From: an uncultured Anaerolineaceae bacterium
GTDB taxonomy: Bacteria; Chloroflexota; Anaerolineae; Anaerolineales; E44-bin32
NCBI GenBank assembly: GCA_964528155.1
Contig: CAZGRL010000001.1
Location: 1,523-65,522 of the forward strand
DNA: 64,000 nt
Reading direction: 5' to 3'
In this document: in pieces, positions 29,205 through 56,325 of the stretch
Layout: every line of letters begins with the position of its first letter
Numbering within the stretch: position 1 is the first letter of the stretch
The notes under the pieces: model-generated
What the model saw: only the letters and a program-made list of their open reading frames with translations
Told to the model about the DNA's origin: nothing
Databases searched by the model: none
Made by a program: the position numbers and the translations under genes

Positions 29205-29686
29205 GCCTCTACCTGCTCCGTGACGAGAGACGCACCGCAGTGCGTGCAGAACCGGTCTCCCCCTACGACGGGCTTGCCACATTGTCCGCAGAACTCGTCA
29301 CTGGCGGGTGCGGCCGCCCGCCGCAAGCGTTTGACCTCGGCCTCGAGGTCCCATTCATCCCCCGCCGTCTCGACCGGCACCTCTCCGATGTCCTGGCCAG
29401 CAGCCTCGCCCTCGAGCCCGGCCAGTTCCCTGAGAAGCTCCGCACCTCGACCCACCAATGACGCACGCTGCGCCTGAAATTCCACCAGCGAGAGCTTGCC
29501 CATCACCTGGTCCATCTCTGCCTCGAGAATGGAGTCCAGAACCTGATCGCGCTCGGCTTTGAGGGCCGAGATGCGCCGTTCGTCGGCGCTGATCTCCGAT
29601 CCGTGCCCCTCAATCAGGGGCCGAGCGATGAAGGCGGCGGCGACGGCAAAAACGGCCAGGATGACGAATAGGGATCCGAGATCCAT
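29201..29686 (-). CDS. Membrane-anchored coiled-coil protein with C-terminal zinc ribbon (CcmI-N-terminus-like)
   Basis: The protein starts MDLGSLFVILAVFAVAAAFIARPL (TM helix), continues with a coiled-coil region and ends FCGQCGKPVVGGDRFCTHCGASL. ATG 29686 lies 2 nt after the ccmG stop. Confidence 0.7.
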   Translation of the reverse strand: MDLGSLFVILAVFAVAAAFIARPLIEGHGSEISADERRISALKAERDQVLDSILEAEMDQVMGKLSLVEFQAQRASLVGRGAELLRELAGLEGEAAGQDIGEVPVETAGDEWDLEAEVKRLRRAAAPASDEFCGQCGKPVVGGDRFCTHCGASLVTEQVEA

Positions 29687-29688
29687 GA

Positions 29689-30270
29689 TTACTCTTCCAT
29701 CGATTGGTTCACGGCCGAGACGATTTCGTCGACCGATGTATAAGGCCCGATCTTCACATGCTTCAAGCGGCCATCGCGACCGACAATGTACGTTTCCGGG
29801 ACGCCCTGCATGCGGAAGGCCTGGGAGATGCGCGTCCCCAGGTCCGGCCCGTTGGCGTAAGTGATGCCAAAGCGATCGAGGTAAGCCAGAGCCTCCGGTT
29901 CGGTATCGACGTAGTCTACACCCAGGAAGACGACATCCTGATCCTTGAGTTGCTGGTGCGCCATCTCGAGCTCCACGGCCTCCTGTTCGCACGGGACGCA
30001 CCACGAGGCCCAGAAGTTAATCACGACGACCTTGCCGCGCAGATCGGCCGTTCTTACGGTGGAGCCATCGAATGTCGTCAGTGTGAACTCGGGAGCTCGC
30101 GCCCCAACGCCGATGTGCCCCTGTTGGGTGCGAATCAGACCCAGCCCGATCACGGCCAGTAAACCGAACACCAAAGCCCAGACAAGGATCGGGCCCCAGC
30201 GTCTGGACCTGGGGACCGTTACGTCTTCAAGCGCGCTCTCGTCCGTCATGATTCGTTCCCTGGCCGCCAT
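29689..30270 (-). CDS. ccmG: Thiol:disulfide oxidoreductase CcmG/ResA/TlpA family
   Basis: A TM anchor plus a thioredoxin fold with VVINFWASWCVPCEQE. The start is ATG 30270 or ATG 30249. Confidence 0.88.
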   Translation of the reverse strand: MAARERIMTDESALEDVTVPRSRRWGPILVWALVFGLLAVIGLGLIRTQQGHIGVGARAPEFTLTTFDGSTVRTADLRGKVVVINFWASWCVPCEQEAVELEMAHQQLKDQDVVFLGVDYVDTEPEALAYLDRFGITYANGPDLGTRISQAFRMQGVPETYIVGRDGRLKHVKIGPYTSVDEIVSAVNQSMEE

Positions 30271-30301
30271 GCACGATCTTTCTAGAATCGGCTGGCGGTC
30301 C

Positions 30302-30787
30302 TCAAGACCTTCGACGCAATTCTTCTTCCAGCCGGGCGACGTATGGATCGTCGCTCGACTCACTCCCGGCCGGATGCGGAACTTCGACCGGCTTGCCCCA
30401 ACTGCGAAAGGCGCGAAACAGGATGTACGCCCCGGCCAGGAATGCGGCCGGCGGCAGGACATACACCAGCCAGTTCAGCCCTCGCGCCGGAGGCGTGGCC
30501 AGCACGCGGGCGCCGTACTGTTCAACGAAGTAGTCCTTGATCTGACTCTCGGACCAGCCGGCTGCCAGCTTGTCGCGGATGGTAGCCCGCCACTGGGCGC
30601 AAGCTTCCGTCGGGCACACGTCCAGAGGGACGTTCTCGCACACCGGGCAGTAAAGCTGGTGGGCGATCGCGTTCACCTCGTCATCCGACGGCGGTGCCGG
30701 CGGCTGGGCCGGGGCCGAGGCCATCAACAGCAATCCGAGCACGGCCGCCCCGACGATCACCAACCACTTCGACGATCCGTGCATCAA
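30302..30787 (-). CDS. ccmH: Cytochrome c-type biogenesis protein CcmH/NrfF
   Basis: A signal peptide, the motif LYCPVCENVPLDVCPTEAC, WSESQIKDYFVEQYG and a C-terminal TM helix. Confidence 0.88.
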   Translation of the reverse strand: MMHGSSKWLVIVGAAVLGLLLMASAPAQPPAPPSDDEVNAIAHQLYCPVCENVPLDVCPTEACAQWRATIRDKLAAGWSESQIKDYFVEQYGARVLATPPARGLNWLVYVLPPAAFLAGAYILFRAFRSWGKPVEVPHPAGSESSDDPYVARLEEELRRRS

Positions 30788-30796
30788 CTGATGTCC

Positions 30797-32851
30797 TCAG
30801 ATCCTGGCTACGACCGCGCGTGAGGCGGCCGTCCGTCGGGTTCTTTCGTACTCACGCGTAGGCCAGGCGGCAAGCAACGTCGCCGCGATGAAGATCAGCC
30901 CGCCCATCCACACAAAGTTGACTTCGGGGTTGTGGTAGACCTTGAACGTGGCCCCTTGCTGAGCGATCGGCTCCCATCCTACCAACAAGACATAGAAATC
31001 ATCCTGAAGCGTCGAGCGGACGCCGGGGATGGTCATGGGTTGCTGGGAGGCGTAGTAGTAGTCACGCCGCGGATGCAAATCACCGACATACTTGCCATCG
31101 CGATAGACCTGGACCACTGCCCGGGCCACGTTGCGACCATCGTTCGTGTCGAACTGGGTCAGCGATTGGTAGGTCATCGTATAGCGCCCGAGAGTCAACG
31201 ACTCGCCGCGCGCCAGCGTTCCCTGCGTTTCCGTCTGGAACATCTCGATGCCGATGATGCCGATCGCCATCAATACAACCCCCAGGTGGATGATGTAGCC
31301 CCCGTAGCGGCGGCGGTTTCGAACCGCCATACGCCACAATGCGAGCGGGAAGCTCTCCGCGTGACGCCTGTGCCGGGCCAGTGCTCCGCGCCAGAACTCC
31401 ACCAGCGTCACGATGATCACAAAGCCGATCAGCCAGTAACCGATGAGCGCGCCGACGAAGGTGACACCGTTGAGGTACAGGACGACCGGTACAACCAGGG
31501 ACAGGACGACAAGCTTCCACAGGTTGCGGCCAAGGCTCCTGCCTGAGCTCGCGCCGTAGGCCGACAGGGGAGCCACGCCCATCAACAATAAAAGCCCGAT
31601 CCACAGGGGGCCGGTGGCTCGCTCATAGAAGGGCGGCCCCACGGTGACTTTCTGGCCGGTGAAGAGCTCCGAGATCAGCGGGAAGATCACCCCCCAGAAA
31701 CAAACGATCAAGATGCCCATGAAGAGCAGGTTGTTGAGCAGGAAGAGCGATTCGCGGGCGAAGACCGAGTCCAGATGATTGTCGCCTTTCAACTCCCCCC
31801 AGCGACTGAGCAACAAGGAAACCGACACCACAAACGTCAATCCGATGAAGCCGAAGAACATCGGGCCTATCGCCGACTGGGCGAAGGCATGAACCGAAGA
31901 CAACACGCCGGAACGGGTCAGGAAGGTCCCGAAGATCACCAGTGCGTAGGTGAGAATGATCAGGAGCATGTTCCAATGCTTCAGCATGCCCCGTTTCTCC
32001 TGGATCATGACCGAGTGCAAGAAAGCGGTCCCGGCCAGCCAGGGCATGAAGGCGGCAATCTCAACCGGGTCCCATCCCCAGTAGCCACCCCATCCCAGCA
32101 CGTCGTAGGCCCAGCGACCGCCAAGGATCAAGCCCAGTGAGAGAAACAGCCAGGCGACAAGCGTCCAGCGGCGGGTGATCCGGATCCAGCGATCATCCGT
32201 CCGATGGGTGACGAGTGCGGCGATGGCGAACGCGTACGGGATCACGAACGAAACGAAACCGAGGTAAAGCATCGGGGGATGGATGACCATGCCCGGATGG
32301 CGCAATAGCGGGTTGAGGCCCTGCCCGTCCATGGGGACGAGGGGGATTGTGCCTCTGGGTTGGAATAGCGCGGCAACTTGCTGGCCATCAAGCGTCTGCC
32401 ACAGTCGTTGGAAGGGGTTTTCAAAGAAGAGCACAAGACTGATAAAGAACGCCAGCGTGACCATTGTGACCACGATCACCCAGGGGAGGAACTCTCGGTC
32501 TCGGTCCCACCGACGCAGGCTGGCGGCAGTCGCAAAGGCCGACATGAGCCACGACCAGAACACGAGTGAGCCTGCCTGGCCGCCCCACAGCGCCGTGACC
32601 TTGAGGTAGGTCGGCATCGCGTCGCTCGTCACGGAGGCCACGTACTTGATCTCGTAGTGACCGCCGACCAGCAGAGCGATGATGGAGAGCGCAGCCAATG
32701 TCACCAATGGCCAGGTCAAGAGCATGGCGTGACGGGCACTCTCGACCAGGGCGGGCTTCCACTTGACGGCGCCGTATGCCGCAGCACCCGCGCCATAGAG
32801 CGCGGCAATGAACGTCAGTACCAGTGAGAAATACCCCAGGTTAGCGAGCAT
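30797..32851 (-). CDS. ccmF: Cytochrome c heme lyase CcmF
   Basis: 684 aa polytopic protein with the W-rich motif WGGYWGWDPVE and conserved His-containing loops. Confidence 0.93.
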   Translation of the reverse strand: MLANLGYFSLVLTFIAALYGAGAAAYGAVKWKPALVESARHAMLLTWPLVTLAALSIIALLVGGHYEIKYVASVTSDAMPTYLKVTALWGGQAGSLVFWSWLMSAFATAASLRRWDRDREFLPWVIVVTMVTLAFFISLVLFFENPFQRLWQTLDGQQVAALFQPRGTIPLVPMDGQGLNPLLRHPGMVIHPPMLYLGFVSFVIPYAFAIAALVTHRTDDRWIRITRRWTLVAWLFLSLGLILGGRWAYDVLGWGGYWGWDPVEIAAFMPWLAGTAFLHSVMIQEKRGMLKHWNMLLIILTYALVIFGTFLTRSGVLSSVHAFAQSAIGPMFFGFIGLTFVVSVSLLLSRWGELKGDNHLDSVFARESLFLLNNLLFMGILIVCFWGVIFPLISELFTGQKVTVGPPFYERATGPLWIGLLLLMGVAPLSAYGASSGRSLGRNLWKLVVLSLVVPVVLYLNGVTFVGALIGYWLIGFVIIVTLVEFWRGALARHRRHAESFPLALWRMAVRNRRRYGGYIIHLGVVLMAIGIIGIEMFQTETQGTLARGESLTLGRYTMTYQSLTQFDTNDGRNVARAVVQVYRDGKYVGDLHPRRDYYYASQQPMTIPGVRSTLQDDFYVLLVGWEPIAQQGATFKVYHNPEVNFVWMGGLIFIAATLLAAWPTREYERTRRTAASRAVVARI

Positions 32852-32888
32852 TCAAGCCGTCTCCTCGTAATGTAACTACCTCAAAGAC

Positions 32889-32934
32889 GACGGACGAGGG
32901 ACGATCGACTCCCGTCTGTCGTCCCTCGTCCGTC
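32889..32934. repeat. Perfect 16-bp-stem hairpin with GACGGACG core (GACGGACGAGGGACGA-N14-TCGTCCCTCGTCCGTC)
   Basis: Read directly. It lies in the ccmE-ccmF spacer and shares the GACGACGGACG core with the element at 25099-25182. Confidence 0.8.
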
Positions 32935-32959
32935 GCCGATCCATCTTTCCCCGGTTACC

Positions 32960-33481
32960 TTAGCCTTGTTGAACCTGAGCCGGGACTTCCTCCTCGTATC
33001 GCGTCGGACACTTGAGCAGGAGTTCGTCGGCTTGGAAGACACCATCCGATCCCATTTGTCCGGTGACGATGGCCTGGGCCTCGTCACGCAAGAGATCCGG
33101 TTTGGGGCCGACGTAGACGACCTGAAGCCGCGTGGCCGTCGGATCGTTCACCGCTTTGTGCAGCACTTCCGCCAGGCCGCCCTCCCGATCGATCTCATTC
33201 ATGTCAGCCGGTACGTTGGCGATGGTGAACCTGAGAGTGAGCGTCTGGGCGTCGTATTCGATCGTGCTCCCATCCACCGCGCCCGAAATCTTGACATCTC
33301 GCCCGGCGACTGCATCCCCCTTGGTCATCAACTCGTCGATGGTCAGATAGTACTGAGCAGCGGCCTGAGTGGATGACGCGATGAGATACACGATCGCGGC
33401 CACGATGAGCAGCGCACCGATGATGAACTTGGTACGACTGGCTGATTTCGGCTCGGCCCTCAAGACTGTTCTTTCCGCCAT
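32960..33481 (-). CDS. ccmE: Heme chaperone CcmE, Cys-variant (CxxxY instead of HxxxY)
   Basis: A TM anchor plus an OB-fold region (VKISGAV...LTLRFTI...VVYVGPKPDLLRDEAQAIVTG). The C-terminal motif is LLLKCPTRY where canonical CcmE has HxxxY. ATG 33481 has GGAGG 8 nt upstream. Confidence 0.88.
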   Translation of the reverse strand: MAERTVLRAEPKSASRTKFIIGALLIVAAIVYLIASSTQAAAQYYLTIDELMTKGDAVAGRDVKISGAVDGSTIEYDAQTLTLRFTIANVPADMNEIDREGGLAEVLHKAVNDPTATRLQVVYVGPKPDLLRDEAQAIVTGQMGSDGVFQADELLLKCPTRYEEEVPAQVQQG

Positions 33482-33751
33482 TGCTCTCCCTCCGGGCCTC
33501 GCCTCAAGACGCCCTGGACCCGACAAACTGAACCGATTCTATCATTATTCCGAAGTTCGCCCTGTCGGATGAAAGTCACTTTTGCGGCCGACAACTGACG
33601 GGCTCATCCTGTGACGTGGCACACTCCGACGCCCATTGACGGCAACACCCCTTTGGATCTTTCTCGGCCTGCATTAACACTCGATGAAACCCCGGCTATG
33701 ATATCCTGAGAAGAATGAAGTGCAGCTCGCCTTCTCGGGTCTTGCGCCGGC

Positions 33752-34867: not shown

Positions 34868-36037
34868 ATGACGGCGCGAACCCGCCTCGGTCGGATTTCC
34901 CTGGGCATTGGCGCGGCGCTCACGCTCGCCGCCGTCGTGATAGGGCTTCGCGCCGGGGGGGCTTTGGCGGCTGGTGGGCGTGGGGCCAGGCCATCCGGGG
35001 CCCAGCCGATCCCTCCAGCCTCGGGCTCGGCTCAGGGCATCAGCAACGAATCCTGCTTCGCCTGCCACAGCACCCCTGGGCTCACCATGGATCTGCCTTC
35101 CGGGGAGCAGTTGTATCTGACTGTCGACCGCGATACGTACAACAACTCCGTCCATGGCCAGCTCGGCTACGCCTGCGTCCAGTGCCACACCGACATCACC
35201 GGATATCCCCATCCAAAGGTGGCGGCACAGACCCTACGCGAGTTCACCCTGGAGAAATACACCGCCTGCGCCGTATGCCATCAGGACAAATATCAGCAGA
35301 CGCTGGATAGCGTTCATCAGAAGGCATTGGCGGCCGGGAACATCAACGCCGCAGTGTGCACCGACTGCCATGGAGCTCACGACGTCCAGCCACCCGACCA
35401 ACCCCGCACCCGCATCCCCCAGACCTGTCAGAAATGTCACTCCCAGATCTATGACCTTTACAAGGACAGCGTTCACGGTGCGGCGCTTATCGGCGAAGGA
35501 AATCCGGACGTCCCGACTTGCATCGATTGCCATGGAGTTCACAACATCGAAGGTCCGTCGAACAGCCCCTTCCGGCTGTTCTCCCCCCAGATCTGCGCCC
35601 GCTGCCACGCCAACAAACAGTTGATGGACAAGTACGGTATAAGCACAGACGTCTTCAACACGTATGTCTCTGACTTCCACGGTACGACTGTCGTGATCTT
35701 CGAAGCCATCACTCCCGATCAACAGACCAACAAGCCCGTGTGCATCGACTGTCATGGCGTGCACGATATCCTCGCACCGAATAACCCCAACAGCACGGTG
35801 ATGAAGGCCAACCTTCTCAAAACGTGCCAGAAGTGTCATCCGGACGCGACCACGAATTTCCCCACAGCCTGGCTGAGCCACTATCGGCCCAGCCCGCAGC
35901 ATTATGCCCTGGTCTACTACGTCCAATTGTTCTATCGGATTCTGATCCCGACCGTCATTGGAGGCATGCTGGTCTTCGTCGTCGCTGATGGGGTCCGTCG
36001 GATAATGATCAAGCGGAAGGGGCGCAGCGATGAGTGA
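34868..36037 (+). CDS. Nine-heme c-type cytochrome with C-terminal membrane anchor (CbcL periplasmic-domain-like)
   Basis: Signal/TM at the N-terminus and nine CxxCH motifs counted (CFACH, CVQCH, CAVCH, CTDCH, CQKCH, CIDCH, CARCH, CIDCH, CQKCH). C-terminal TM helix ILIPTVIGGMLVFVVADGV. The GAGGTGG Shine-Dalgarno lies upstream. Confidence 0.88.
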   Translation: MTARTRLGRISLGIGAALTLAAVVIGLRAGGALAAGGRGARPSGAQPIPPASGSAQGISNESCFACHSTPGLTMDLPSGEQLYLTVDRDTYNNSVHGQLGYACVQCHTDITGYPHPKVAAQTLREFTLEKYTACAVCHQDKYQQTLDSVHQKALAAGNINAAVCTDCHGAHDVQPPDQPRTRIPQTCQKCHSQIYDLYKDSVHGAALIGEGNPDVPTCIDCHGVHNIEGPSNSPFRLFSPQICARCHANKQLMDKYGISTDVFNTYVSDFHGTTVVIFEAITPDQQTNKPVCIDCHGVHDILAPNNPNSTVMKANLLKTCQKCHPDATTNFPTAWLSHYRPSPQHYALVYYVQLFYRILIPTVIGGMLVFVVADGVRRIMIKRKGRSDE

Positions 36038-37190
36038 ATCCCGCAAGTACCTCCGCTTCCCGGTCTCCTATCGAATCGAGCACTGGATCCTGGTTACCGC
36101 TTTCACCACCCTGGCGATCACCGGGCTGGTGCAGAAGTTCCCAATGGCGGGTATCTCGGATGCGATCCTGCGCCTGCTCGGTGGGATCGATACGACGCGG
36201 GTGATCCACCATAGAGCGGCGGTCGTCCTGATGCTGGAAGCCGTGTATCACATCGGTGCCGTCGGATTCCGCCTTTTCGTCCGCCGGACACGTCTTTCGA
36301 TGCTCCCGACGATGACCGATGTTCGTGTGGCCGTGCAGGCGTTGCTCTTCAATCTGGGTCTCAGCAAAGTCCGTCCACAGCAGGGTCGTTTCAGCTTCGA
36401 AGAGAAGGTCGAGTATTGGGCGGTGGTCTGGGGCACCGTGATCATGGCGCTCACTGGCTTCATGATGTGGAACCCGATCGCCACGACCCGCTTACTCCCA
36501 GGGGAGTTTGTGCCGGCGGCGAAGTCGGCCCACGGGGCGGAAGCGGTGCTGGCCGTCCTGGCCATCATCATCTGGCACATCTACCACGTTCACGTCCGCG
36601 AACTCAACAAGAGCATGTTCACCGGTCGACTGACAGAAGACGAGATGATCGAGGAGCACCCGCTCGAGTTGGCCGATCTCAAGGCCGGTGTGGCAGAGCG
36701 TCCGGTCGAACAGCGCTTGCTTACCCGCCGCAAGCGGATTTTCTATCCGGTCTACGGCCTGCTGGCGGCGGTGATGCTCCTCGGGATCTACGCCTTTGTC
36801 GCGTTGGAGCATACAGCTGTTACCACCCTGCCGCCCGCCGAGAATGTCGTCGTCTACGCTCCGCTCACGCCGACACCTTTCCCGACGGCGCTGCCTTCGG
36901 CCACGGCACAGCCGATCACAGCGGTCACCTGGGATGGCGGGATCGGGGCCATTTTCCAGACCAAGTGCGGGACGTGCCACGGCGGGCCGTCGGGTCTGGG
37001 CGGGCTGGATCTGTCCAGCTACGCCGGCATCAGCGCCGGTGGAGTCGACGGCCCGGCGATCGTGCCTGGCGATGCCGACGCCAGCCTGCTGGTATCGAAG
37101 CAATCCGCCGGCGGTCATCCGGGGCAGCTGACCGGTGAGGAACTGGCCCTGGTCCGGCAGTGGATCGAGGCCGGCGCGCCGGAAAACTAA
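36030..37190 (+). CDS. FdnI/HydC-type diheme cytochrome b fused to a C-terminal PSCyt1-like monoheme c domain
   Basis: The N-terminus YLRFPVSYRIEHWILVTAFTTLAITGLVQKF plus four to five TM helices with conserved His fit the Ni_hydr_CYTB type. The C-terminal ~91 aa read WDGGIGAIFQTKCGTCHGG...IVPGDADASLLV...WIEAGAPEN. The gene overlaps the previous one by 8 nt. Confidence 0.85.
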   Translation: MSESRKYLRFPVSYRIEHWILVTAFTTLAITGLVQKFPMAGISDAILRLLGGIDTTRVIHHRAAVVLMLEAVYHIGAVGFRLFVRRTRLSMLPTMTDVRVAVQALLFNLGLSKVRPQQGRFSFEEKVEYWAVVWGTVIMALTGFMMWNPIATTRLLPGEFVPAAKSAHGAEAVLAVLAIIIWHIYHVHVRELNKSMFTGRLTEDEMIEEHPLELADLKAGVAERPVEQRLLTRRKRIFYPVYGLLAAVMLLGIYAFVALEHTAVTTLPPAENVVVYAPLTPTPFPTALPSATAQPITAVTWDGGIGAIFQTKCGTCHGGPSGLGGLDLSSYAGISAGGVDGPAIVPGDADASLLVSKQSAGGHPGQLTGEELALVRQWIEAGAPEN

Positions 37191-37210
37191 AACTCAGGCT
37201 CAATCGGAGA

Positions 37211-38357
37211 ATGCGCATAGAAACGTTGAGAGGGGCGATCCGGCGCTTCTACTTCCCGCCCGAAGGCTCACCCTTGTGGATCGGGCTGCTCCCGTACGCC
37301 ACGCTCGACGTGCTCAGCCTGGCGGCGCTCGTCTCAGGCGCGTACGCCTGGGATTACACCAATTCGCCTCCTTTCTGTGGCGCCGTTTGCCATACCATGC
37401 CGCCCGAATACACGGCTTGCCTGACCTCGCATCACGCCCGGGTGGATTGCGTCGAGTGCCACATCGGCCGCGGGTTCATCGCCACCCGTGTGACCCGCAA
37501 GGCGGGAGATACCAAGTACATCGTCGCTCTGGCTTTCCACGAGTATGAATTTCCGATTCGGGCGACGGACTTGAGGCCGGCCCGCGAGACGTGTGAGCGT
37601 TGCCACTTCCCGGAGAAATTCTCCGACGATAGCCTGCGTCACATTCAACACTATGCCAATGGTGTGGATAACACGCCGACGACGACTTATCTCGTCCTCA
37701 AGACCGGAGGCGGGTCGAAGCGGCAGGGCCTCGGGCGCGGCATCCACTGGCACATCGAGAACCAGGTTCACTATCTGCCGTTGGATCCCGAAGAGCAGTC
37801 GATCCCCTACGTGCGTGTCATCCAGGACGATGGTTCAGTCTCGGAATACGTCGAGTTGGGTTCAGGCATCGATCCGGCCTCGATCAACCCATCCGACTTG
37901 AAGGAGATGGACTGCATCACGTGTCACAACAGGGTCACCCACCTGATCCTCTCGCCCGAGGACACCGTCGATCAGCTCATCACCGGCAGCGCCATTTCGC
38001 AGGAAATCCCCGAATTACACGAGAAGGCCTGTCGAGGTGTACGGCGCGTCATACAGCTTGACCCAGGAGGCCATGTCAGGCATCGCCGGCCTGACATACG
38101 ATGGTGCCATTGGCTTGCTGTTCCAGAACCGCTGTGCCGCGTGCCATGGCGCGTCAGCAACCATGGGCCTCGACCTGACGTCCTACGCCACGGCCATGGC
38201 CGGAAGCAAGAACGGGCCGGTGATCGTGCCCGGTGATCCTCAGGGAAGCCTTCTTGTCCGGAAACAATCGGGGGACCAGCCCCACTTCGGACAGTTCTCA
38301 GCCAAAGAACTTCAACGAGTCGTCGATTGGATCAAGGCCGGTGCGCCTGAGAAGTAA
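37211..38357 (+). pseudogene. NapC/NirT-like tetraheme quinol dehydrogenase plus C-terminal PSCyt1-like monoheme domain, split by a +1 frame error near 38030
   Basis: An N-terminal TM helix and four CxxCH motifs (CGAVCH, CVECH, CERCH, CITCH). After ...EIPELHEKA the frame turns to nonsense, while skipping T38030 gives VEVYGASYSLTQEAMSGIAGLTYDGAIGLLFQNRCAACHG...WIKAGAPEK (ORF 38037-38357). That second part has no signal peptide of its own. Confidence 0.8.
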
Positions 38358-38446: not shown

Positions 38447-38926
38447 ATGGGTGAACCGAACCGAATGGGCCGTCGCCAATTCCTGAGCACGCTGACCTGG
38501 GCGATCGGCGGGGTCATCAGCGCCGGGCTCGGCATCCCTGCCATTGCCTACATCATTGGTCCGGCGCTCCAGGGCACGGGGACCCAGAATTGGATCCGGC
38601 TGGGCTCGACAGCCAAGGTCGAACTCGGAGCCCCCACGCTTTTCAAAGCCCGAATCACCCGCAAGACAGGCTGGATCGAGAACGAGGAAGAACTCTCAGC
38701 CTACGTCAGGACCGACAACGGGCGCGAATTCGTGGCGATGTCCAACATCTGCACCCACCTCGGGTGCCGGGTGCGCTGGGTCAGCGGGCAAGGGGAGTTC
38801 TTCTGCCCCTGCCACAACGGCGTATTCGATAAGGACGGCAACGTCGTGTCCGGCCCTCCGCCGCGACCCCTCGACCGCTATGAAGTTAAGGTCGAGGACG
38901 ACGAACTGTTCATTCTGGGAGGCTGA
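38447..38926 (+). CDS. Rieske [2Fe-2S] subunit of a cytochrome bc-type complex
   Basis: Tat-like RRQFL, and the motifs CTHLGCRVRW and CPCHNGVF. Confidence 0.92.
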   Translation: MGEPNRMGRRQFLSTLTWAIGGVISAGLGIPAIAYIIGPALQGTGTQNWIRLGSTAKVELGAPTLFKARITRKTGWIENEEELSAYVRTDNGREFVAMSNICTHLGCRVRWVSGQGEFFCPCHNGVFDKDGNVVSGPPPRPLDRYEVKVEDDELFILGG

Positions 38927-38928: not shown

Positions 38929-39588
38929 ATGGCGGCCAGAGTCGGCGATTGGTTGGACGAACGACTGGGATGGCGGCAGGTCTGGGAAGCGATCTTCCTG
39001 CGCAAGATCCCCAAAGTCAATTGGTTCTACACCCTTGGGAGCGCGGCACTCTTCTTGGCGGTGAATCAGATTGTGACGGGGATTTTGCTCACCATCTACT
39101 ACGTCCCGACCCCCGATCACGCGTATGACAGCGTGCAGTTCATCACCGGGCAGGTCCCGGCCGGCTGGCTAATTCGAGGATTGCACCACTGGGGTGCCAG
39201 CGCCATGGTCGTCATCGTGGGCCTGCACATGTTGCGTGTGATCCTGCAAGGCTCCTACAAGTACCCGCGGGAGGTCACCTGGTTTACCGGTGTTCTTCTC
39301 TTGTTGGCGGTGGTCGGGTTCGGCTTCACCGGATACCTCCTCCCATGGGACCAGAAGGCATTCTGGGCTACGACCGTCGGCACGCGCATCGCCGGGGTGA
39401 CGCCCGTTGTCGGAGAGTGGATCCTGCGCATCATGCGCGGCGGCGAGGAACTCTCAGCGGTCACCCTGGCACGATTCTTCGGCGTACACGTGTGGGTCCT
39501 GCCGGCGGCCTTGCTGAGCCTGGTACTCGTGCACCTCTACCTTGTCATCCGGATCGGGATCAGCGCCCCGCCGAAGAGGGGGGAGTGA
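38929..39588 (+). CDS. Cytochrome b6-like subunit (N-terminal four-helix cytochrome b)
   Basis: 219 aa with NWFYTLGSAALFLAVNQIVTGILL, GLHHWGASAMVV and YLLPWDQKAFWAT, the b6/b N-terminal-domain signatures. It begins 2 nt after the Rieske gene. Confidence 0.9.
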   Translation: MAARVGDWLDERLGWRQVWEAIFLRKIPKVNWFYTLGSAALFLAVNQIVTGILLTIYYVPTPDHAYDSVQFITGQVPAGWLIRGLHHWGASAMVVIVGLHMLRVILQGSYKYPREVTWFTGVLLLLAVVGFGFTGYLLPWDQKAFWATTVGTRIAGVTPVVGEWILRIMRGGEELSAVTLARFFGVHVWVLPAALLSLVLVHLYLVIRIGISAPPKRGE

Positions 39589-39591: not shown

Positions 39592-41694
39592 ATGAACGAA
39601 CAAGAAAAGAAAGAGTACCTGGAGGCCTACCACAAAGCCAAGGAAGCCGGGCCGTCGTTCTTTCCTGACGTCGTCGTCAAAGATGCCGTCGTCGCACTCT
39701 TGGTGTTCCTGGCGCTTGCGGCTCTGGCCTACTTCATCGGCGCCCCGCTCGAAGCCCGGGCCAACCCGGCCGATACATCGTACACCCCTCGACCGGAATG
39801 GTATTTCCTGTTCTTGTTCCAGTTGTTGAAGTACTTCCCGGGGAAGTTGGAGGTTATCGGGGTCATCGTCATCCCGACCGTGGTCCTCGGATTGTTGTTC
39901 TTCTTGCCATTTATCGATCGGACAGCCAAGCGACATCCCATCGGTCGGCCGATTGTCACCGCCGGCGTGACACTGGTCGTGCTCGCCGTCGGGCTGCTGA
40001 CGCTGCAGGCGGTGCGCGAGACGCCTCCGCCGGCCGACACTTCACTCGGTGATCCAACCGCCGCGCTCTACGTCACAAACTGCGCCGGCTGCCACGGCCC
40101 GTCCATCAGCGTGCCGCCCAGCACCAACCTGCACGCCGTCATCGCCCAGGGCAAACACGAAGGCATGCCGGCCTGGAACGCCGATCTCACCAGCGACGAG
40201 ATCGATGCGCTGGCAGGTTTCATCCTCTCCCCCGACGGCAGCCGCCTGTTCACCGAGAACTGTGCCGAATGCCACCAGACCTCTGAACTCGTGGCCAGCG
40301 ATCCACTTGAGCTTAGGTCAGCATTGCAGCAGGGGCCCGACTACCCACCGCACGCCGGTCTGGAAGTGCCGGCCTGGACACAAACACTCAGCCCCGAGGA
40401 GCGCACGGCGCTGCTCAATTTCCTGGTCGCCCCTGACGGGCAGCGCCTGTTCGCCATCAACTGCGCTGCGTGCCACGGACGATCCGTGTCCTTCTCGGGG
40501 GACGAAGCCACCCTGCGCCAGATCATCCAACAGGGCGGGTTGCATCTCGAGATGCCGCCGTGGCGAGAGAGATTGAGCTCGTCGGAGCTCGACATGCTGG
40601 CCAGCTATGTTGTCGACCCGTCCAACACGCCTCAAGGCCAGCAACTGTTCTCCAACTACTGCACCGAATGCCATGGGCAGCGCGTCCCGGCGGAGACTGA
40701 CGTCGAGACGGCCCGCCAGGCAATCGCCAGCGGCGGCGGGCACGAGACGATGCCCGTATGGGGAAACATCCTCACGCCCGAACAAATCGACGCGTTGGTG
40801 AGTTACACACTCGAAGCCGCTCACGGCGCGCCCCTCGAGCTGGGCCAGGATCTCTTTGCCAAGAACTGCTCCGTCTGCCACGGCGATTTCGGCGAAGGCG
40901 GGCCCAACCCAACCCGACCGGACGACATCATCGCCCCAATCAGCTCAGCCGAGTTCCTCGAGACGCGCGATGACGCCACACTGCGAGCGATCATCTCCCA
41001 GGGCCAGCCCAACTTCGGGATGTCACCCTTTGGGAACGCTTACGGAGGCCCGTTGAGCGACGAGGAGGTTGACGCTCTCGTAGCCTTCATCCGATCGTGG
41101 CAAGCAAAGCCTCCGGTGGAACTGCCTCCGGAAATCGTGAGCCGACCGCTATCGATCGAGGGTCCTGACATCTACGCCGAGGTCTGCGCGCAATGCCACG
41201 GCGTTCAAGGCGAAGGCCTGATCGGCCCATCGCTGAGCGATCCTTCGTTCCAATCCGCCAACACGGATGAGCAGATCTACAACACGATCAATGTCGGCCA
41301 CGAGGCCACAGCCATGATCGGCTGGGGAGAGATCCTCAGCGCCGACCAGATCCACCAGCTTGTGGATTACATCCGGAAGCTGGGCGGAGCAGGAGCCGCG
41401 CAAGACGCTGGCGAAGTCTCTTTTAAGAATGACGTGCTCCCCATCCTGGATGAGAAGTGCGGGATCTGTCATGGCAGCCTGGGAGGCTGGGACGCCTCGA
41501 GCCATCAATCGGTGATGGAGAGCGGGGACAATGGGCCAGTCGTGAACCCCGGAGACCCCGAAGCCAGCCTGCTCGCCCAGAAGCTCCTCGGCACTCAGAC
41601 GATTGGAGCAGAGATGCCTCCAGCAGGCCCGCTGCCGCAGGACGAAATCCAGACGATCCTGGATTGGATCAGCGCGGGCGCCTTGGACAACTGA
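39592..41694 (+). CDS. Subunit IV-like (cytochrome b C-terminal) membrane domain fused to seven c-type heme domains
   Basis: The N-terminal ~130 aa contain PEWYFLFLFQLLKYFPG (the PEWY motif of subunit IV). Seven CxxCH motifs follow (CAGCH, CAECH, CAACH, CTECH, CSVCH, CAQCH, CGICH). Six sit in tandem class I-like repeats, and the last sits in a PSCyt1-like module ending WISAGALDN. Confidence 0.88.
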   Translation: MNEQEKKEYLEAYHKAKEAGPSFFPDVVVKDAVVALLVFLALAALAYFIGAPLEARANPADTSYTPRPEWYFLFLFQLLKYFPGKLEVIGVIVIPTVVLGLLFFLPFIDRTAKRHPIGRPIVTAGVTLVVLAVGLLTLQAVRETPPPADTSLGDPTAALYVTNCAGCHGPSISVPPSTNLHAVIAQGKHEGMPAWNADLTSDEIDALAGFILSPDGSRLFTENCAECHQTSELVASDPLELRSALQQGPDYPPHAGLEVPAWTQTLSPEERTALLNFLVAPDGQRLFAINCAACHGRSVSFSGDEATLRQIIQQGGLHLEMPPWRERLSSSELDMLASYVVDPSNTPQGQQLFSNYCTECHGQRVPAETDVETARQAIASGGGHETMPVWGNILTPEQIDALVSYTLEAAHGAPLELGQDLFAKNCSVCHGDFGEGGPNPTRPDDIIAPISSAEFLETRDDATLRAIISQGQPNFGMSPFGNAYGGPLSDEEVDALVAFIRSWQAKPPVELPPEIVSRPLSIEGPDIYAEVCAQCHGVQGEGLIGPSLSDPSFQSANTDEQIYNTINVGHEATAMIGWGEILSADQIHQLVDYIRKLGGAGAAQDAGEVSFKNDVLPILDEKCGICHGSLGGWDASSHQSVMESGDNGPVVNPGDPEASLLAQKLLGTQTIGAEMPPAGPLPQDEIQTILDWISAGALDN

Positions 41695-41857: not shown

Positions 41858-43330
41858 ATGTCGACAGATCGAAGTCGATCCACAATCCCCTGGCTCCGAC
41901 ATAGCCTGCGGGCGCGGGTCGCCATCAGCGTTGCGCTTCCACTGATGCTCGCATTAGCCTCCCTGTCGATTGCCCACTACTTGCGCGGCCGCGACCTGGT
42001 CGAAAGCCAGGTTCGGATGACGGCAGCCCAGCTTGGCCAGATTCTGACAGGAAGCCTGCGTCGGGCGATGCTGGCAAATGACAATCAAATGATCACCGCC
42101 GTCTTAGAGGACGTCGGTAGTATGGAAAACATTGATCGGATCCGTATCGTCGACAGCCAGGGTGTCGTTCGCCTCGACAGCCATTCGACGGACCTCGGTC
42201 GGCAGGAGCTCACCGGCCAGCCGGGGTGCGTCGAGTGCCATGTCTACGATCCTTCTGTCCGACCGCGAGCGGTGCTCCTGACGGGCGCCGCCGGGATCTT
42301 GAGGATCGCCACACCGATCGACAATGAACTGGCCTGCCTGGGCTGTCACTCTGAGTCCCAGAGACACCTGGGTGTCGTCCTGGCCGATGTCCCGGTCCAG
42401 GCGCTCGAACAGAACTTGTTCCACGATCTCGAAATCGATCTGGCGATCTCAGTCGGCATCACGCTGCTGGTGACCATCGGGGTGTATTTGCTCATACACC
42501 GGTCGGTTGTGCGCAGAGTGGAGAGTTTCCTGCCGGCATTGGCGTCATTCGCCCGCGGCGACTTGAGCGCCCGCCTGCCGGAGCGTGGCCGCGAGCACGA
42601 CGAATTGGGGCAACTCGCCGTCGCTTTCAATCAGATGGCCGACGACCTGGAAAGGCATACCCGCGATCAGGCCGCACGAACCAGGCTGCGTCAACGCGCA
42701 ATTGTTGAGGAACGTGAGCGGATTGCCCGCGAACTTCACGACGGCATCGCCCAGCTCCTGGGATTCGTCAACAACAAAGCCATGGCCGTCCGCCTGCTTC
42801 TGAAGAAGAACCAGACCCATGAAGCCGATGATCAGCTCCAACAACTCGAGGAGGCCTCGCACGGTCTTTTCGTCGATGTCAGAGAAGCGATCATCGGCTT
42901 GAGGACCACAGACAAGGCCGGCGTCGGGCTTTCCAGCGCAGTCGAAGACTACACCCACCAATTCAGCCGACTGAGTGGGATCACGGTGGACCTCTCGATC
43001 GGCCCTGGGGTAAGGGATATTGAGCTCAACGCCGAAGTCGAGTTGCAGTTGCTGCGCATCATTCAGGAGGCCCTGACGAACATTCGCAAGCACGCCGCCG
43101 CCAGCCGCGCTTCGGTGAGCCTGCGGAGGAATGACACCAGACTCGAGTTGGCCATCACTGACAACGGCGTGGGCTTCGTGCCGGCCTCTGCGGACTCCGA
43201 CCATCAGCCCCGGTTCGGATTGAGCACCATGCAAGAGCGGGCCGAGTCGATCGGGGCGGCGTTCGAACTGGCTTCCGCGCCGGGGGCAGGCACTCGCGTC
43301 TCCGTCAACGCTCCGCTGGGGAGGAGATAG
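41858..43330 (+). CDS. Sensor histidine kinase (HAMP, HisKA_3, HATPase) with two CxxCH motifs in the extracytoplasmic loop
   Basis: Two TM helices flank a ~170 aa loop containing GCVECH and ACLGCH. HAMP (LAVAFNQMADDL), the H-box ARELHDGIAQLL and the ATPase domain (NGVGF, GLSTMQERA) follow. Confidence 0.9.
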   Translation: MSTDRSRSTIPWLRHSLRARVAISVALPLMLALASLSIAHYLRGRDLVESQVRMTAAQLGQILTGSLRRAMLANDNQMITAVLEDVGSMENIDRIRIVDSQGVVRLDSHSTDLGRQELTGQPGCVECHVYDPSVRPRAVLLTGAAGILRIATPIDNELACLGCHSESQRHLGVVLADVPVQALEQNLFHDLEIDLAISVGITLLVTIGVYLLIHRSVVRRVESFLPALASFARGDLSARLPERGREHDELGQLAVAFNQMADDLERHTRDQAARTRLRQRAIVEERERIARELHDGIAQLLGFVNNKAMAVRLLLKKNQTHEADDQLQQLEEASHGLFVDVREAIIGLRTTDKAGVGLSSAVEDYTHQFSRLSGITVDLSIGPGVRDIELNAEVELQLLRIIQEALTNIRKHAAASRASVSLRRNDTRLELAITDNGVGFVPASADSDHQPRFGLSTMQERAESIGAAFELASAPGAGTRVSVNAPLGRR

Positions 43331-43334
43331 GCGC

Positions 43335-43976
43335 ATGCGGGTCCTCGTAGCCGACGATCACTCCCTCTTCCGGGACGGCGTGGTAAGCCTGTTGGAGGCA
43401 GCCGGTTTCGAGGTCGTCGGCCAGGTGGGAGACGGTCTGGCCGCCGTCGAGTCCGCCATTGACCTGAGGCCTGACCTCGTCTTGATGGATATCACTATGC
43501 CCAAACTCAGCGGGCTGGACGCGCTTCGTCGCATGAGGGCGGAAGCTCCCGAGATCCAGGTGGTCATGCTCACCGTCTCGGACGAGGACAGCGATCTGCT
43601 TGCCGCGATCCAGTCCGGTGCCAAGGGCTACATCCACAAGAGCTTGAGTGCCCAGGAGTTCCTCGACCTGATCGGCGGGCTGGAGCGCGGCGAGGCAGCC
43701 TTGAGCCGGAAGACGGCCGCGCGCCTGATCGCCAGGCTTGGAAACAGGCCCGGGCCTGAGGACGACAGACTGCCGCGCCTCACGCGACGCGAGATCGAGC
43801 TACTCAAGCTGGTGGCCGACGGTTTATCTAACAAGGCCATCGCCCAATCGTTGTCCGTGAGCGAGAACACAGTCAAATATCACGTTCGCAACATCCTGCA
43901 AAAGCTCGGAGTTCAAAACCGGACCGAGGCTGTCGCTCATGCGATCCGCGCCGGGCTCCTCGGCCGTCGTGATTGA
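43335..43976 (+). CDS. NarL/FixJ-family response regulator (REC plus LuxR HTH)
   Basis: MRVLVADDHSLFRDG, LVLMDITMP, and LTRREIELLKLVADGLSNKAIAQSLSVSENTVKYHVRNIL. Confidence 0.93.
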   Translation: MRVLVADDHSLFRDGVVSLLEAAGFEVVGQVGDGLAAVESAIDLRPDLVLMDITMPKLSGLDALRRMRAEAPEIQVVMLTVSDEDSDLLAAIQSGAKGYIHKSLSAQEFLDLIGGLERGEAALSRKTAARLIARLGNRPGPEDDRLPRLTRREIELLKLVADGLSNKAIAQSLSVSENTVKYHVRNILQKLGVQNRTEAVAHAIRAGLLGRRD

Positions 43977-44544: not shown

Positions 44545-44650
44545 GACGACGGGCCCTTTGCTCGGCATGGATGGAAGGAGGTTGCCTCCGCGCGGATTCT
44601 TGCTATCCTGTGACGAAGTCCAAACGAGACCATCAGAGGAGAATGGCTCT

Positions 44651-45670
44651 ATGGGAAGAAGACTGATCATACTTGGCTTGGCTCTCGTCGGTGCGGCGCT
44701 TGTCCTATCGGCCTGTGCGGGTGCCGCGGGCCCAGCGGGCCCCGCGGGACCGCAGGGGGCTGTGGGACCTCAGGGTCCGACCGGTCCGGCCGGCGCGCCA
44801 CCGGCCGCCGCCGACCTGACGTGCACCCAGTGCCATAATGACACTACGTTGATCGACGGCAAGGCGACTGCCTGGAGCGAGTCCCTACACGGGACAGGTG
44901 AGGCCTACGTGCGGGGAACAAGCGCGGACTGCGCAGGCTGTCACTCCGGCGGCGCCTTCAGCGCCAGAATCGCCGCGGGTCTCAGCCCGGACAAGGTTGA
45001 AGCCGGCGATCCCAACCCGACGCGTCAGGATTGCCGCACCTGCCACGAGATCCACACGACATACACCTCCGCCGACTGGGCTTTGGAGACCACCGACCCG
45101 GTGGCTCTCTACGCCATCGAGGGCTCGACTTTCGACGGTGGAAAAGGCAATCTGTGCGCCAACTGCCATCAGCCACGCCGCGATTTCCCTGTCGCAGAGA
45201 ACGGCGTGATCAGTGGAATCTCCACACACTGGGGTCCACACCACGGCCCGCAGAGCGCCATGCTGCTCGGGGTAGCCGGCTCCGTTGCGGGCACCCCCAG
45301 CGCGCACTACTCGGTGGTGAAGGATACGTGCGTCGGATGCCACATGGGTGGAGACGCCGCCAATCACACGTTTGAGCCGGACGTTGCGACCTGCCAGACA
45401 TGTCACACCGATGCCACGGACTTCGACATCAACGGCGTGCAGACCGAAGTCCAGGCGATGATCACTGAACTTGGCGACAAGCTGGTTGCCGCGGGCGTGC
45501 TCAGTGAAAACAGCGCGGATGGTCACCCGACCGTAACAGAAGGCCCCGAGGCTGTCGCGACTGCTCTCTATGACTGGCTCTACGTCGCCCATGAAGACAA
45601 GAGCCTGGGCGTCCACAACCCTGCCTATACCAAGGCTTTGCTCCAGGCGGGTTTGGATGCAATGAAGTAA
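44651..45670 (+). CDS. Hexaheme c-type cytochrome lipoprotein with N-terminal collagen-like Gly-X-Y stalk
   Basis: Lipobox LVLSAC is followed by nine Gly-X-Y triplets (GAAGPAGPAGPQGAVGPQGPTGPAGAP). Six CxxCH motifs follow (CTQCH, CAGCH, CRTCH, CANCH, CVGCH, CQTCH). The C-terminal helices contain EDKSLGVHNPAY, reminiscent of NrfA-type multiheme proteins. GAGGAG lies upstream of the ATG. Confidence 0.85.
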   Translation: MGRRLIILGLALVGAALVLSACAGAAGPAGPAGPQGAVGPQGPTGPAGAPPAAADLTCTQCHNDTTLIDGKATAWSESLHGTGEAYVRGTSADCAGCHSGGAFSARIAAGLSPDKVEAGDPNPTRQDCRTCHEIHTTYTSADWALETTDPVALYAIEGSTFDGGKGNLCANCHQPRRDFPVAENGVISGISTHWGPHHGPQSAMLLGVAGSVAGTPSAHYSVVKDTCVGCHMGGDAANHTFEPDVATCQTCHTDATDFDINGVQTEVQAMITELGDKLVAAGVLSENSADGHPTVTEGPEAVATALYDWLYVAHEDKSLGVHNPAYTKALLQAGLDAMK

Positions 45671-49845: not shown

Positions 49846-50496
49846 TTACGCCTGGATGATCCCCTTCCGAATGGCGTACTTCACAAGCTCTGTGCGAGAG
49901 TGCAGATTGAGCTTGCGCATGATGTTCTCACGATGCCGGGCGACGGTCTTCGGGCTGATCCCAAGAGTCTCAGCGATCTCAACGTTGCTGGCGCCATCGG
50001 CCAGATGACCGAGCACCTCTCCCTCGCGTTGCGTCAGCCCGTCGAGCGCGTTCTCTTCGTGAGAGGTCGACTCCTGACTGAGGTAATCCTTGACCAGGAG
50101 CTTGGCCAGGGAGGGGTAGAGGTAGACCTCCCCGCCTGCGGCAGCTCGGATCGCCGTGAGCAGTTCCTCGGGCGCGGCCCGCTTCGGCACATAGCCACTC
50201 GCGCCGGCGTCGAGCATCTTGAAGAAGTACTCTTCGTCTTCGTGGATGGTCAATGCAACGATGGCGATCTCGGGCCGCAAAGCCTTGACCTGACGAGCGG
50301 CGTCGATGCCGGAAAGGTCCGGCAATCCGATATCCATCAGGATGACGTCCGGCCGGAGTCGATCGAGGGAATCGAGAGCCTCGCGCGCCGTCCCTGCTTC
50401 ACCCACGATATCGACATCAGGCTCGTTTTCGAGGAGCATTCTCAAGCCTGATCGCACGACAGCGTGGTCATCCACCAGCAGAAGACGAATCGCCAT
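49846..50496 (-). CDS. NarL/FixJ-family response regulator
   Basis: [26 protein letters not shown], and [43 protein letters not shown] 50496 has AGAGG upstream, and the gene overlaps the kinase gene end. Confidence 0.92.
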
Positions 50497-51967
50497 TTTC
50501 AGCCTCTGATGCTTGATTATAGGGGATCCTGACTTCGACGCGTGTCCCGGCGCCGGGAGTGGAATCGACTCGCAGCTGTCCACCAAGCAGACTCGCCCTC
50601 TCTTCCATCCCGATCAGCCCCCAGGCCCGCCGGTCAGGCGTGTCGATCCGATTCTTGTCAAAGCCGCAACCGTCATCCTCCACTTGTAGACCGACAACCT
50701 CGTCCGCGTAATCCAGGCGGACCGTCACCTTGTTCGCCTTGGCATGTTTGATGACATTGGTCAATGCTTCCTGGGCGACGCGAAACACCGTCGTCTTCAC
50801 GACGGATGGGATCGGCCTCTCCTCGCCGCGCACCTGCACACTGACCTCGAGAGGAACCCGCGACTGGATCTCGCCAGCATACCAGCGCAGGGCCGCCGGA
50901 AGCCCGAGGTCATCCAGGTGGGATGGCCGCAGATCGGAGATTAACCGCTGAAGTTCGTCCAGGGAGCGCGCCGTCAGACTCTCCAGCTGCCGCAGGTTCT
51001 TGACCCCTTTCTCGTTGTCGGTCGGAAGCATCACAGATATCCCCCGCAGCCCGAGGCCGATCGCCGTCAGTGCCTGGCCGGTCTCATCGTGGAGCTCACG
51101 CGCAATCCGTTGCCGTTCGGCCTCTTGAGCCGCGACCACGCGGCGCAACAGTTCACCTCTCAGCGCTTCCCTCCGCTGTGCCTCCTCCAGCCTTGCGGAT
51201 TGCAGCACGGCGATTTGCCTTTGGGTCTCTACCTCGAACGAACGCAAGAATCGAATGACAAACAGGGCTGCCACAACCGCGGCGACGGCGCGAACGACCT
51301 GGACCGGAACGCCGAATGTGGATTGGAACAGTTCTTGGTTGATTACGTTGGAGGGAAACAACGGGCTGGCCCGACTGAACACCTGTCCGATAAGACCGTA
51401 CCAGGCAAATGCCACCGCGGCCCATAGACTATCTCGTCCGAATTGAGCTAGGCCCGCCTGCCGGAAAGCCCGCTGCTGGGCGATCAGCCCAGCCGAGGCG
51501 AGTAACGCCGCGGGAAGCCCGAGAACATAGCGCGACCACACATCGGCCACATTCCACAGGACGCTCTCGCCTGGATAGCGACCTCGCAGCGCCATCAGGC
51601 CGAAGCCCCAGATCGCCGCCATGATCAGAGGAACCAGGAGGCTGACACGCCGCCACTGCTGCGTGGGAGCCAGGAGAGAGGCGCCGAATGCCCCCAGCGA
51701 CAGGAATGAAAACGCCAGGATCGCCAGCCTCAAGCCTTCCCAGGCCAGGCCGCCCGTGAACTGCAACGGCAAGACCTGAAGACTGAGGAACATCTCGAGC
51801 CACTCGTGAATCCCATGCAGCAGGCCGAAGCCCGCCAAAGGTCGTAGGGCGTGCCGCAGCCTCGCATCCGTCCCTCGACCCACTTCGAGGGTGATGGCCA
51901 GTCCCATGCTGAAGAACGCGAGACCGTAGAGGAAGAAGATCAGGGGGATGCCGGAGTCGTAGGACAT
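50468..51967 (-). CDS. Sensor histidine kinase with polytopic membrane-embedded N-terminal domain (HisKA_3 plus HATPase)
   Basis: About six or seven TM helices with no large periplasmic loop. The H-box is [15 protein letters not shown] and the ATPase domain carries DDGCGF and GLIGMEERA. Confidence 0.9.
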
Positions 51968-53702: not shown

Positions 53703-53818
53703 TCTCCTCCAGTTGCCCTCTCGCTGCTATAGCCAGGCGAGGCCGGGCAGTCCGATTCTACTTTCAAGCTCCAGGCAGGGACAGTGACGTTTCTCCCCGG
53801 CCGACAGCTCCAGCAATC

Positions 53819-53850
53819 GGCGCCGCCGCCTCGTGCGAAGCGGCGGCGCC
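53819..53850. repeat. Intercistronic GC hairpin (GGCGCCGCCGC-N10-GCGGCGGCGCC)
   Basis: A perfect 11-bp stem between the two diheme cytochrome genes. No U-tract follows on the transcribed (minus) strand. Confidence 0.7.
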
Positions 53851-53880
53851 GCTTTCATTCCTACACACTGCCTACGGCTT

Positions 53881-54717: not shown

Positions 54718-54720
54718 GGA

Positions 54721-56310: not shown

Positions 56311-56325
56311 CTTATCCTCCTCGGG

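Follow-up and report, generated by a model that had tools for sequence, protein, structure and literature searches.

Complexes of the Rieske/cytochrome b type usually pass electrons to a subunit with one or two haems, and then to a diffusible carrier. [quoted passage not shown] Such a version is encoded in the stretch of DNA analysed here, 64,000 nucleotides from an uncultured Anaerolineaceae bacterium (contig CAZGRL010000001.1, positions 1,523 to 65,522; hereafter the window). According to the list of open reading frames (ORFs) and the translation of the window, 700 codons without a stop lie at 39592–41694 on the + strand. This is the third gene of an operon with the order Rieske protein, split cytochrome b, and subunit IV-haem fusion. 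The seven-haem subunit IV fusion is a real, conserved family in Anaerolineales. The parts of the operon are as follows, with positions in amino acids (aa) of the 700-aa protein and the haem domains numbered D1 to D7 in order of sequence:

38447..38926, + strand: Rieske [2Fe-2S] subunit, 159 aa (Pfam Rieske, 46 bits, and PetC transmembrane anchor)
38929..39588, + strand: split four-helix cytochrome b, 219 aa (PF00033, 175 bits)
39592..40038, + strand: subunit IV module, aa 1–149 (PF00032, hydropathy, PEWY motif)
40039..40824, + strand: D1–D4, mini class I cytochrome c domains, aa 150–411 (CxxCH at aa 164, 224, 291, and 357)
40825..41142, + strand: D5, full-size class I domain, aa 412–517 (CxxCH at aa 426, Met477; PF00034 stretch at aa 416–502)
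41143..41415, + strand: D6, class I domain, c6/c552-like, aa 518–608 (CxxCH at aa 532, Met575; best PF13442 stretch at aa 523–594)
41416..41694, + strand: D7, PSCyt1-like monohaem domain, aa 609–700 plus the stop codon (CxxCH at aa 623, Met675)

Comparison with Described Complexes

The Bacillus-type QcrC of the QcrABC (b6c) complex is like the seven-haem complex in its split cytochrome b, in the fusion of a class I domain to the C-terminus of subunit IV, and in the (here predicted) position of the haem part on the outer face. The gene order of Rieske protein, cytochrome b, and fusion is the same. A further likeness is a monoderm-type host without a soluble cytochrome c pool. The differences are also clear. 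QcrC has one haem domain, while the 700-aa protein has seven. The quinol-oxidising (Qo) motif is PDWY in Firmicutes and PEWY here, and the neighbours here are multihaem cytochromes, unlike in Bacillus. Cytochrome b of Bacillus has the CxGG site for haem ci in the form YCFGG (Kao & Hunte 2014, PMC4122944), while the seven-haem complex has TLGS at this site.

[quoted passage not shown] PEWY and a C-terminal class I fusion are common to the PEWY-cyt c clade of that study and the 700-aa protein, a likeness by motif and architecture. The short cytochromes b of Rubrobacter and Conexibacter have TLGS (Dibrova et al. 2017, PMC5600118), which replaces CxGG exactly as in the partner of the seven-haem protein. 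The papers on PEWY-cyt c proteins describe one fused class I domain, and make no mention of a seven-domain tail, a D1–D4 insert, or a PSCyt1-like end.

The actinobacterial dihaem QcrC (bcc-aa3) is a tandem class I relay from the Rieske protein without a soluble carrier, as is proposed here for the seven-haem tail. Unlike the 700-aa protein, it is a separate subunit with its own anchor and two haems, and docks to the aa3 oxidase. The model of actinobacterial QcrC, NF050122, gives 80.3 bits against a cut-off of 200, and only D5–D6 (aa 412–597) match it. Mycobacterial and corynebacterial QcrC structures are among the fold matches.

Anammox bacteria have b6-like split complexes (Kuste4569–4574 and Kustd1480–1485) with a hexa- or octahaem partner on the outer face instead of cytochrome f, and several Rieske/cytochrome b complexes can occur in one anammox organism (PMC12954380). 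Their multihaem subunits are separate and of the packed type, and they have a five-helix subunit IV, haem ci, and an NAD(P) oxidoreductase module, none of which is seen here. In Geobacter, CbcL, ImcH, and ExtPQ are alternative quinol-oxidising modules that feed a multihaem network, like the gene island proposed below. Unlike the seven-haem complex, these modules have no Rieske protein and no class I haem tail. The cytochrome b scores 217 bits on ExtP (cut-off 290), and the subunit IV protein 25.7 bits on ExtQ (cut-off 150).

Anaerolineae are rich in multihaem cytochromes according to a general survey (bioRxiv 10.1101/2021.08.23.457424), and Chloroflexi possess bc complexes (PMC5826079). In a literature search, no description was found of a haem tail of more than two domains on subunit IV, of a D1–D4 insert, or of the shared PSCyt1-like end. 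The 'heptaheme' protein in PMC13013709 is MmcA of Methanosarcina and is unrelated.

Integrity and Distribution of the Fusion

The subunit IV module is recognised by PF00032 (cytochrome b C-terminal/PetD), which matches aa 57–144 with 44.4 bits against a cut-off of 20.7. The Qo motif PEWY is at aa 68–71 and is invariant across 63 aligned homologues. Three hydrophobic spans are predicted in the 700-aa protein, all of them before aa 145, and Pfam finds six PF13442 stretches (class I cytochrome c). Pfam, motifs, and hydropathy thus agree with the preliminary description of this gene, which saw a PEWY-containing subunit IV fused to seven CxxCH domains, six of class I and one PSCyt1-like. The N-terminus and the loop DRTAKRHPIGRP of the module hold basic residues. 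Based on the positive-inside rule and on the need for haem attachment by the cytochrome c maturation (Ccm) system, the C-terminus of subunit IV and the haem tail would be on the outer (positive) side. The gene for cytochrome b starts 3 nucleotides past the Rieske gene, and the 700-aa gene 4 nucleotides past the stop of cytochrome b. Because the three genes are packed so tightly, they are probably translationally coupled.

It had been considered from the beginning that a missed stop or a frame error might have united a PetD-like gene with separate cytochrome c genes. The frame is continuous here, and the homologues have the same form. The 120 nearest in the database are 62–96% identical and about 700 aa long, with exactly seven CxxCH in 116 of them. 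Within the same order, sampled with one genome per species, 61 of 401 genomes have a match at E ≤ 1e-100; these are spread over 9 of 18 families and 36 of 124 genera. Nearly the whole protein is spanned by about 50 of these 61 matches, and internal stops are seen in none. The length of about 700 aa also recurs in hundreds of metagenomic clusters. Support for an artefact was not found; in one relative, G480 (L022), the gene is in two pieces (with 5 and 2 CxxCH). An origin of the fusion through faulty assembly or a wrong frame is rejected on the open frame and on the matches from dozens of independent genomes, and its probability is practically nil.

In an even phylum-wide sample of 401 genomes, a full-length match is seen in only the source genome and one other. 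Elsewhere in the order, ordinary forms are present, in which subunit IV or a whole cytochrome b is fused to two haem domains. The preliminary description had left room for an architecture that is already common and characterised. It is common in databases, where the names of the seven-haem homologues are generic, such as 'c-type cytochrome' and 'mono/diheme cytochrome c family protein', and no description was found in the literature search. Two homologues are labelled 'Anaerolineales bacterium' in the database. In the relative L023 (G543:C9), a single ORF of 907 aa unites cytochrome b and subunit IV with all seven haem domains, and PEWY is at aa 275.

Domains of the Haem Tail

When the tail is cut 14 residues ahead of each CxxCH, the lengths of D1 to D7 are 60, 67, 66, 69, 106, 91, and 92 aa. 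This domain parsing was followed by an all-against-all local alignment, as had been suggested with the preliminary description. Every pair among D1–D6 exceeds shuffled controls (z = 5–29). D1–D4 are mutually closest, with 32–46% identity and z = 11–29, while D7 shows only weak kinship to the others (z about 1–5). D1–D4 lack about 40 residues that are present in D5 and D6 between the haem site and the Met helix. CxxCH and the (M)P.W motif are 43–51 residues apart in D5 and D6, close to the 40–50 residues first given for all six domains, and only 28–35 residues apart in D1–D4. The motif itself is not uniform either, since D2 has V instead of M.

In the alignment of 63 homologues, Met192, Met321, Met387, Met477, Met575, and Met675 (in D1, D3, D4, D5, D6, and D7) are invariant. 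D2 (40219–40419, + strand) has Val at the Met position, and His254, located in a YPxH insertion, is invariant in all 63. Because Val replaces Met while His254 is invariant, the haem of D2 is probably not His/Met-ligated. It may be bis-His-ligated, which would place a haem of lower potential in the middle of the chain. No linkers are present between D1–D4. The linker after D5 is Pro-rich, and that after D6 is Gly/Ala-rich and variable within the family.

PSCyt1 (PF07635) matches D7 at aa 623–679 with 21.6 bits, just under the cut-off of 22. A neighbour domain that is 40% identical to D7 scores 36 bits on the same model, and several homologues carry a precomputed PF07635 hit. D7 is 38–40% identical to the C-terminal domains encoded at 36912–37187 and 38079–38354, which belong to a cytochrome b561-type protein and a NapC/NirT-like protein. 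The D7-like terminal domain is thus common to three membrane modules: b561-type, NapC/NirT-like, and the seven-haem subunit IV.

The AlphaFold2 model of the whole protein, built without haems, has a mean predicted local distance difference test (pLDDT) score of 68 and a predicted template modelling (pTM) score of 0.28, with low inter-domain confidence. It supports helical, class I-like domains, and not a domain arrangement or haem spacing. With Foldseek against the PDB, the matches are confined to single class I domains, dihaem QcrC, and CcoP. D6 matches the Kuenenia cytochrome c-552 (7o38) in the PDB, from which a search by sequence retrieved no solved structure of a cytochrome c fused to subunit IV.

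Modular History of the Tail

The subunit IV module alone (aa 1–150) was used as a query against a library of representatives at 50% identity, a survey also suggested with the preliminary description, and gave 2375 hits at E ≤ 0.001. Among split-type proteins in the best 150 of these 2375, the numbers of proteins with 0 to 8 CxxCH are 39, 25, 25, 7, 5, 1, 3, 2, and 1, where some of the low counts are likely fragments. The initial view that seven haems on subunit IV are unusual is supported. The informative relatives, after mapping to D1–D7 and alignment in pairs, are:

P0142: 444 aa, 3 haems; subunit IV-D5-D6-D7, collinear, 54% identity over D5–D7, with no room for D1–D4
P0128 and P0141: 6 haems; D1–D4, D5, and D7, without D6
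P0133: 8 haems; D1–D4, D5, an additional D5-like domain, D6, and D7
Many further relatives: 2 haems; D5 and D6, or D5 and D7

In a maximum likelihood tree of 118 domains, each position forms one clade, with support of 0.91–0.95 for the positions D1–D4. D1–D4 are united with support of 0.84. Relatives with 2 or 3 haems have a membrane-proximal (first) domain that groups with D5 at a support of 0.92. Based on this phylogeny, D5 is the orthologue of that membrane-proximal domain. The tail is thus an older core, D5-(D6)-D7, into which a four-domain block, D1–D4, was inserted between the last helix and D5. Because the collinear 444-aa protein P0142 is subunit IV-D5-D6-D7, D1–D4 are a single inserted block. 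Judging from the clades, this block arose through duplication prior to the diversification of the family.

The six class I domains had at first been taken as serial duplications. Their pairwise relationship stands, and a single six-fold series is rejected, as D1–D4 are a separate clade and D5 and D6 are older and common to 2- and 3-haem relatives. P0219, a protein of 900 aa, is a different seven-haem fusion of subunit IV. All of its domains are long and D5/D6-like (78–133 aa), and mini-domains like D1–D4 are absent. Because P0219 is built only of such long domains, expansion of the tail has occurred more than once.

Rieske Protein and Cytochrome b

The Rieske protein carries a twin-arginine signal (RRQFL) and two cluster boxes, CTHLGC and CPCHNGVF; the pattern CPCHN(G/A)xF is conserved in 18 loci. 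From bc1 biochemistry, Ser and Tyr in the Rieske box raise the potential of the cluster. The box CPCHNGVF is without these two residues, which would fit a low-potential, menaquinol-oxidising enzyme. In all 17 related loci, Rieske motifs are encoded just upstream of the seven-haem gene and a cytochrome b gene is present.

The cytochrome b scores 240 bits on NF002990 (cytochrome b6), below the cut-off of 325. TLGS stands at the haem-ci position in 16 of the 17 related loci and ALGS in one, while b6f and Bacillus complexes have CxGG. Because TLGS stands in place of CxGG, no covalent haem ci is expected. The 700-aa protein does not reach the PetD equivalog TIGR01156, with 36.9 bits against a cut-off of 127. 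Cytochrome f is not in the three-gene operon, whose c-type part is the class I tail; the rest of the genome was not searched for it. True b6f membership is rejected on the score for TIGR01156 and the lack of CxGG. The original term 'b6-type' remains valid only for the split gene layout. With the NCBIfam equivalogs of b6f subunit IV, cytochrome b6, ExtP/ExtQ, and actinobacterial QcrC all below their cut-offs, the complex is related to the fusions of cytochrome c to subunit IV and is not a b6f.

Gene Neighbourhood

The operon lies among genes for multihaem cytochromes and for their maturation:

34868..37190, + strand: nine-haem cytochrome c (389 aa) and, overlapping it, a membrane protein of the cytochrome b561 type with a C-terminal PSCyt1 domain (386 aa) (Pfam)
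37160..38357, + strand: NapC/NirT-like cytochrome, broken, directly upstream of the Rieske gene (PF03264; tblastn with the 564-aa orthologue of L024)
41858..43976, + strand: NarX/NarL-type two-component pair (Pfam, NCBIfam)
44558..45670, + strand: six-haem cytochrome, 370 aa, downstream (Pfam; counterpart in L024)
29689..33526, − strand: cytochrome c maturation genes (thioredoxin-like, CcmF, CcmE), 6–10 kb upstream (Pfam; same neighbours in L004)

The pair at 34868..37190 is a putative neighbouring module of the quinol-oxidase type. The Ccm genes are needed for attaching the seven haems. An octahaem/iron-sulphur/NrfD-like set is located downstream on the opposite strand. Of the 17 related loci, 12 have the 7-haem NapC/NirT-like gene (about 565 aa) directly upstream of the Rieske gene, 10 have an orthologous 9-haem gene nearby (upstream), and 13 have a 10-haem gene (about 730–820 aa) nearby.

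Orthologues of the NapC/NirT-like protein have 564–585 aa and 7 CxxCH. In the window, residues 2–274 and 478–564 of the orthologue are found in two frames, 53 nucleotides apart. Three haem sites are lost with the absent stretch of about 200 residues (approximately 275–477), and the PSCyt1-like tail is encoded in the other frame. The damage exceeds a single-base frameshift and reflects a true deletion or else an error of the assembly. Collapse of a repeat like D1–D4 was considered and rejected, as the missing part has packed multihaem motifs unrelated to D1–D7.

The NarX-like kinase (41858–43330, + strand) has two CxxCH. Such a kinase follows the gene also in L014, L015, and L024 (493–513 aa, two CxxCH each). 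The motifs suggest a haem-based redox sensor for the cytochrome island. A 634-aa protein encoded at 27378–29282 (− strand), adjoining the ccm genes, has two class I domains near its N-terminus; the rest has no Pfam match at E ≤ 1e-5.

Other Respiratory Genes

A second, conventional Rieske/cytochrome b complex is encoded in the window:

52917–56961, − strand: second complex (Pfam), which also includes dihaem class I cytochromes c of 278 and 261 aa
56326–56961, − strand: Rieske protein, 211 aa
54721–56310, − strand: long cytochrome b of 529 aa that combines PF00033 and PF00032

Further along on the same strand is a HisKA_3 kinase gene (50468–51967). One haem-copper oxidase and a bd-like oxidase are encoded on other contigs of the source genome. 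A haem-copper oxidase is present in all ten near-complete carriers, never close to the seven-haem operon, and nine of these ten have 2–6 cytochrome b genes. Four to six cytochrome b (PF00033) genes, an unusually high number, are seen in the carriers G572, G580, G743, G737, G451, G530, and G480. In G727, a long cytochrome b gene is 2.6 kb from the haem-copper oxidase and the seven-haem operon is about 350 kb away. This distribution fits a division of labour; the seven-haem complex may also feed the oxidase.

Proposed Function and Alternatives

The 700-aa protein is most likely the joint subunit IV and cytochrome c subunit of a quinol oxidoreductase, with menaquinol as the substrate. With the integrity of the gene, its domains, their modular history, and the conservation and synteny established, a mechanism can be proposed for which we infer the flow direction, the partners, and the domain that docks the Rieske protein. 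The seven-haem complex could be an energy-conserving, hard-wired outlet of the quinone pool to tethered multihaem cytochromes, not to a free soluble cytochrome. We give this proposal a probability of roughly 0.6. The three helices of the 700-aa protein would complete the Qo site with PEWY, and the seven outer-face domains, each loaded covalently with haem, would replace cytochrome c1 or f. Upon quinol oxidation at Qo, one electron would pass via the Rieske cluster to the membrane-proximal c haem, that of D1 or D5. D1 adjoins the last helix here, while D5 does so in the older, shorter forms, and D1–D4 might be a side arm. The electron would then be relayed through the chain as far as D6 and D7, which are distal and loosely linked. 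D7, common to two neighbouring proteins of the quinol-oxidase type, would be the hand-off domain, from which electrons reach the tethered multihaem cytochromes of the same conserved gene island.

Several observations weigh against this outlet model. Domains of class I with His/Met ligation are characteristic of aerobic and denitrifying chains of high potential, not of the low-potential multihaem networks of metal reducers. All 11 carriers checked encode a haem-copper oxidase. G607, which is 90% complete, shows one cytochrome b gene, and there the complex may serve general respiration. The source window lacks the 10-haem gene, and its NapC/NirT-like partner gene is damaged. The inter-domain confidence of the haem-free model is low, and both the partners and the flow direction are inferred.

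Some of these observations would suit a tail that acts in ordinary aerobic or denitrifying respiration as a built-in substitute for soluble cytochrome c, with a haem-copper oxidase or nitrogen-oxide reductases as its direct electron acceptors, as in bcc-aa3 or Bacillus QcrC, and with the extra domains only adding reach or docking sites. The class I domains with invariant Met ligands, the resemblance of D5–D6 to actinobacterial dihaem QcrC and to CcoP, the oxidase in every carrier checked, and the single cytochrome b gene of G607 are all consistent with it. No locus examined has an oxidase gene next to the operon, where multihaem cytochromes are almost always encoded; cytochrome b genes besides that of the operon are present in most carriers, and in G727 it is the long cytochrome b that lies beside the oxidase. 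Delivery to an oxidase or reductase is thus considered unlikely. Co-occurrence of an oxidase was dropped as a discriminator between the readings, as a haem-copper oxidase is encoded in all carriers checked. The chain might also work in reverse or in both directions, taking electrons from extracellular or wall-bound donors, such as Fe(II) or a syntrophic partner, into the quinone pool, like the uphill bc1 of iron-oxidising acidophiles; this would explain the conserved multihaem neighbours equally well. High-potential class I domains would suit uptake, and the sequence sets no flow direction. The Rieske box without Ser and Tyr fits low-potential menaquinol oxidation instead, and no recognised iron-oxidation marker was seen in the neighbourhood, where none was specifically searched for. 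Such uptake seems quite improbable. The variation from 2 to 8 haems among relatives is easier to accept for a charge store, a membrane-bound capacitor that buffers the Qo site under fluctuating acceptors, than for a precisely docked wire. The separate orthologous clade of each domain position, the invariant ligands kept in many genera, and the sharing of the distal D7 with other membrane modules argue for specific interactions, and make storage as the main role very improbable.

The proposed outlet to tethered multihaem cytochromes can be extended to the whole island. It can be speculated that the island is a three-gear exit from the menaquinone pool, with CbcL-like b561, NapC/NirT-like, and Q-cycle Rieske/cytochrome b modules, by which a filamentous, wall-bounded member of the Chloroflexota could send electrons past its membrane. 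All three modules would end in the PSCyt1-like hand-off domain and share one set of tethered multihaem proteins. The seven-haem tail would let a proton-motive complex III join extracellular respiration, and D1–D4, with the probable bis-His D2, would set the reach or gate the flow. This extension is doubtful as a whole.

Seven haems are carried here on the membrane subunit itself, and they are kept across many genera of an abundant, mostly uncultured order. The natural variants with 2, 3, 6, 7, and 8 haems are a ready-made deletion series for effects of chain length. If it is true that the tail wires the complex to multihaem proteins, there would be a direct coupling between energy conservation by the Q-cycle and electron transfer outside the membrane, which current models of extracellular respiration do not include.

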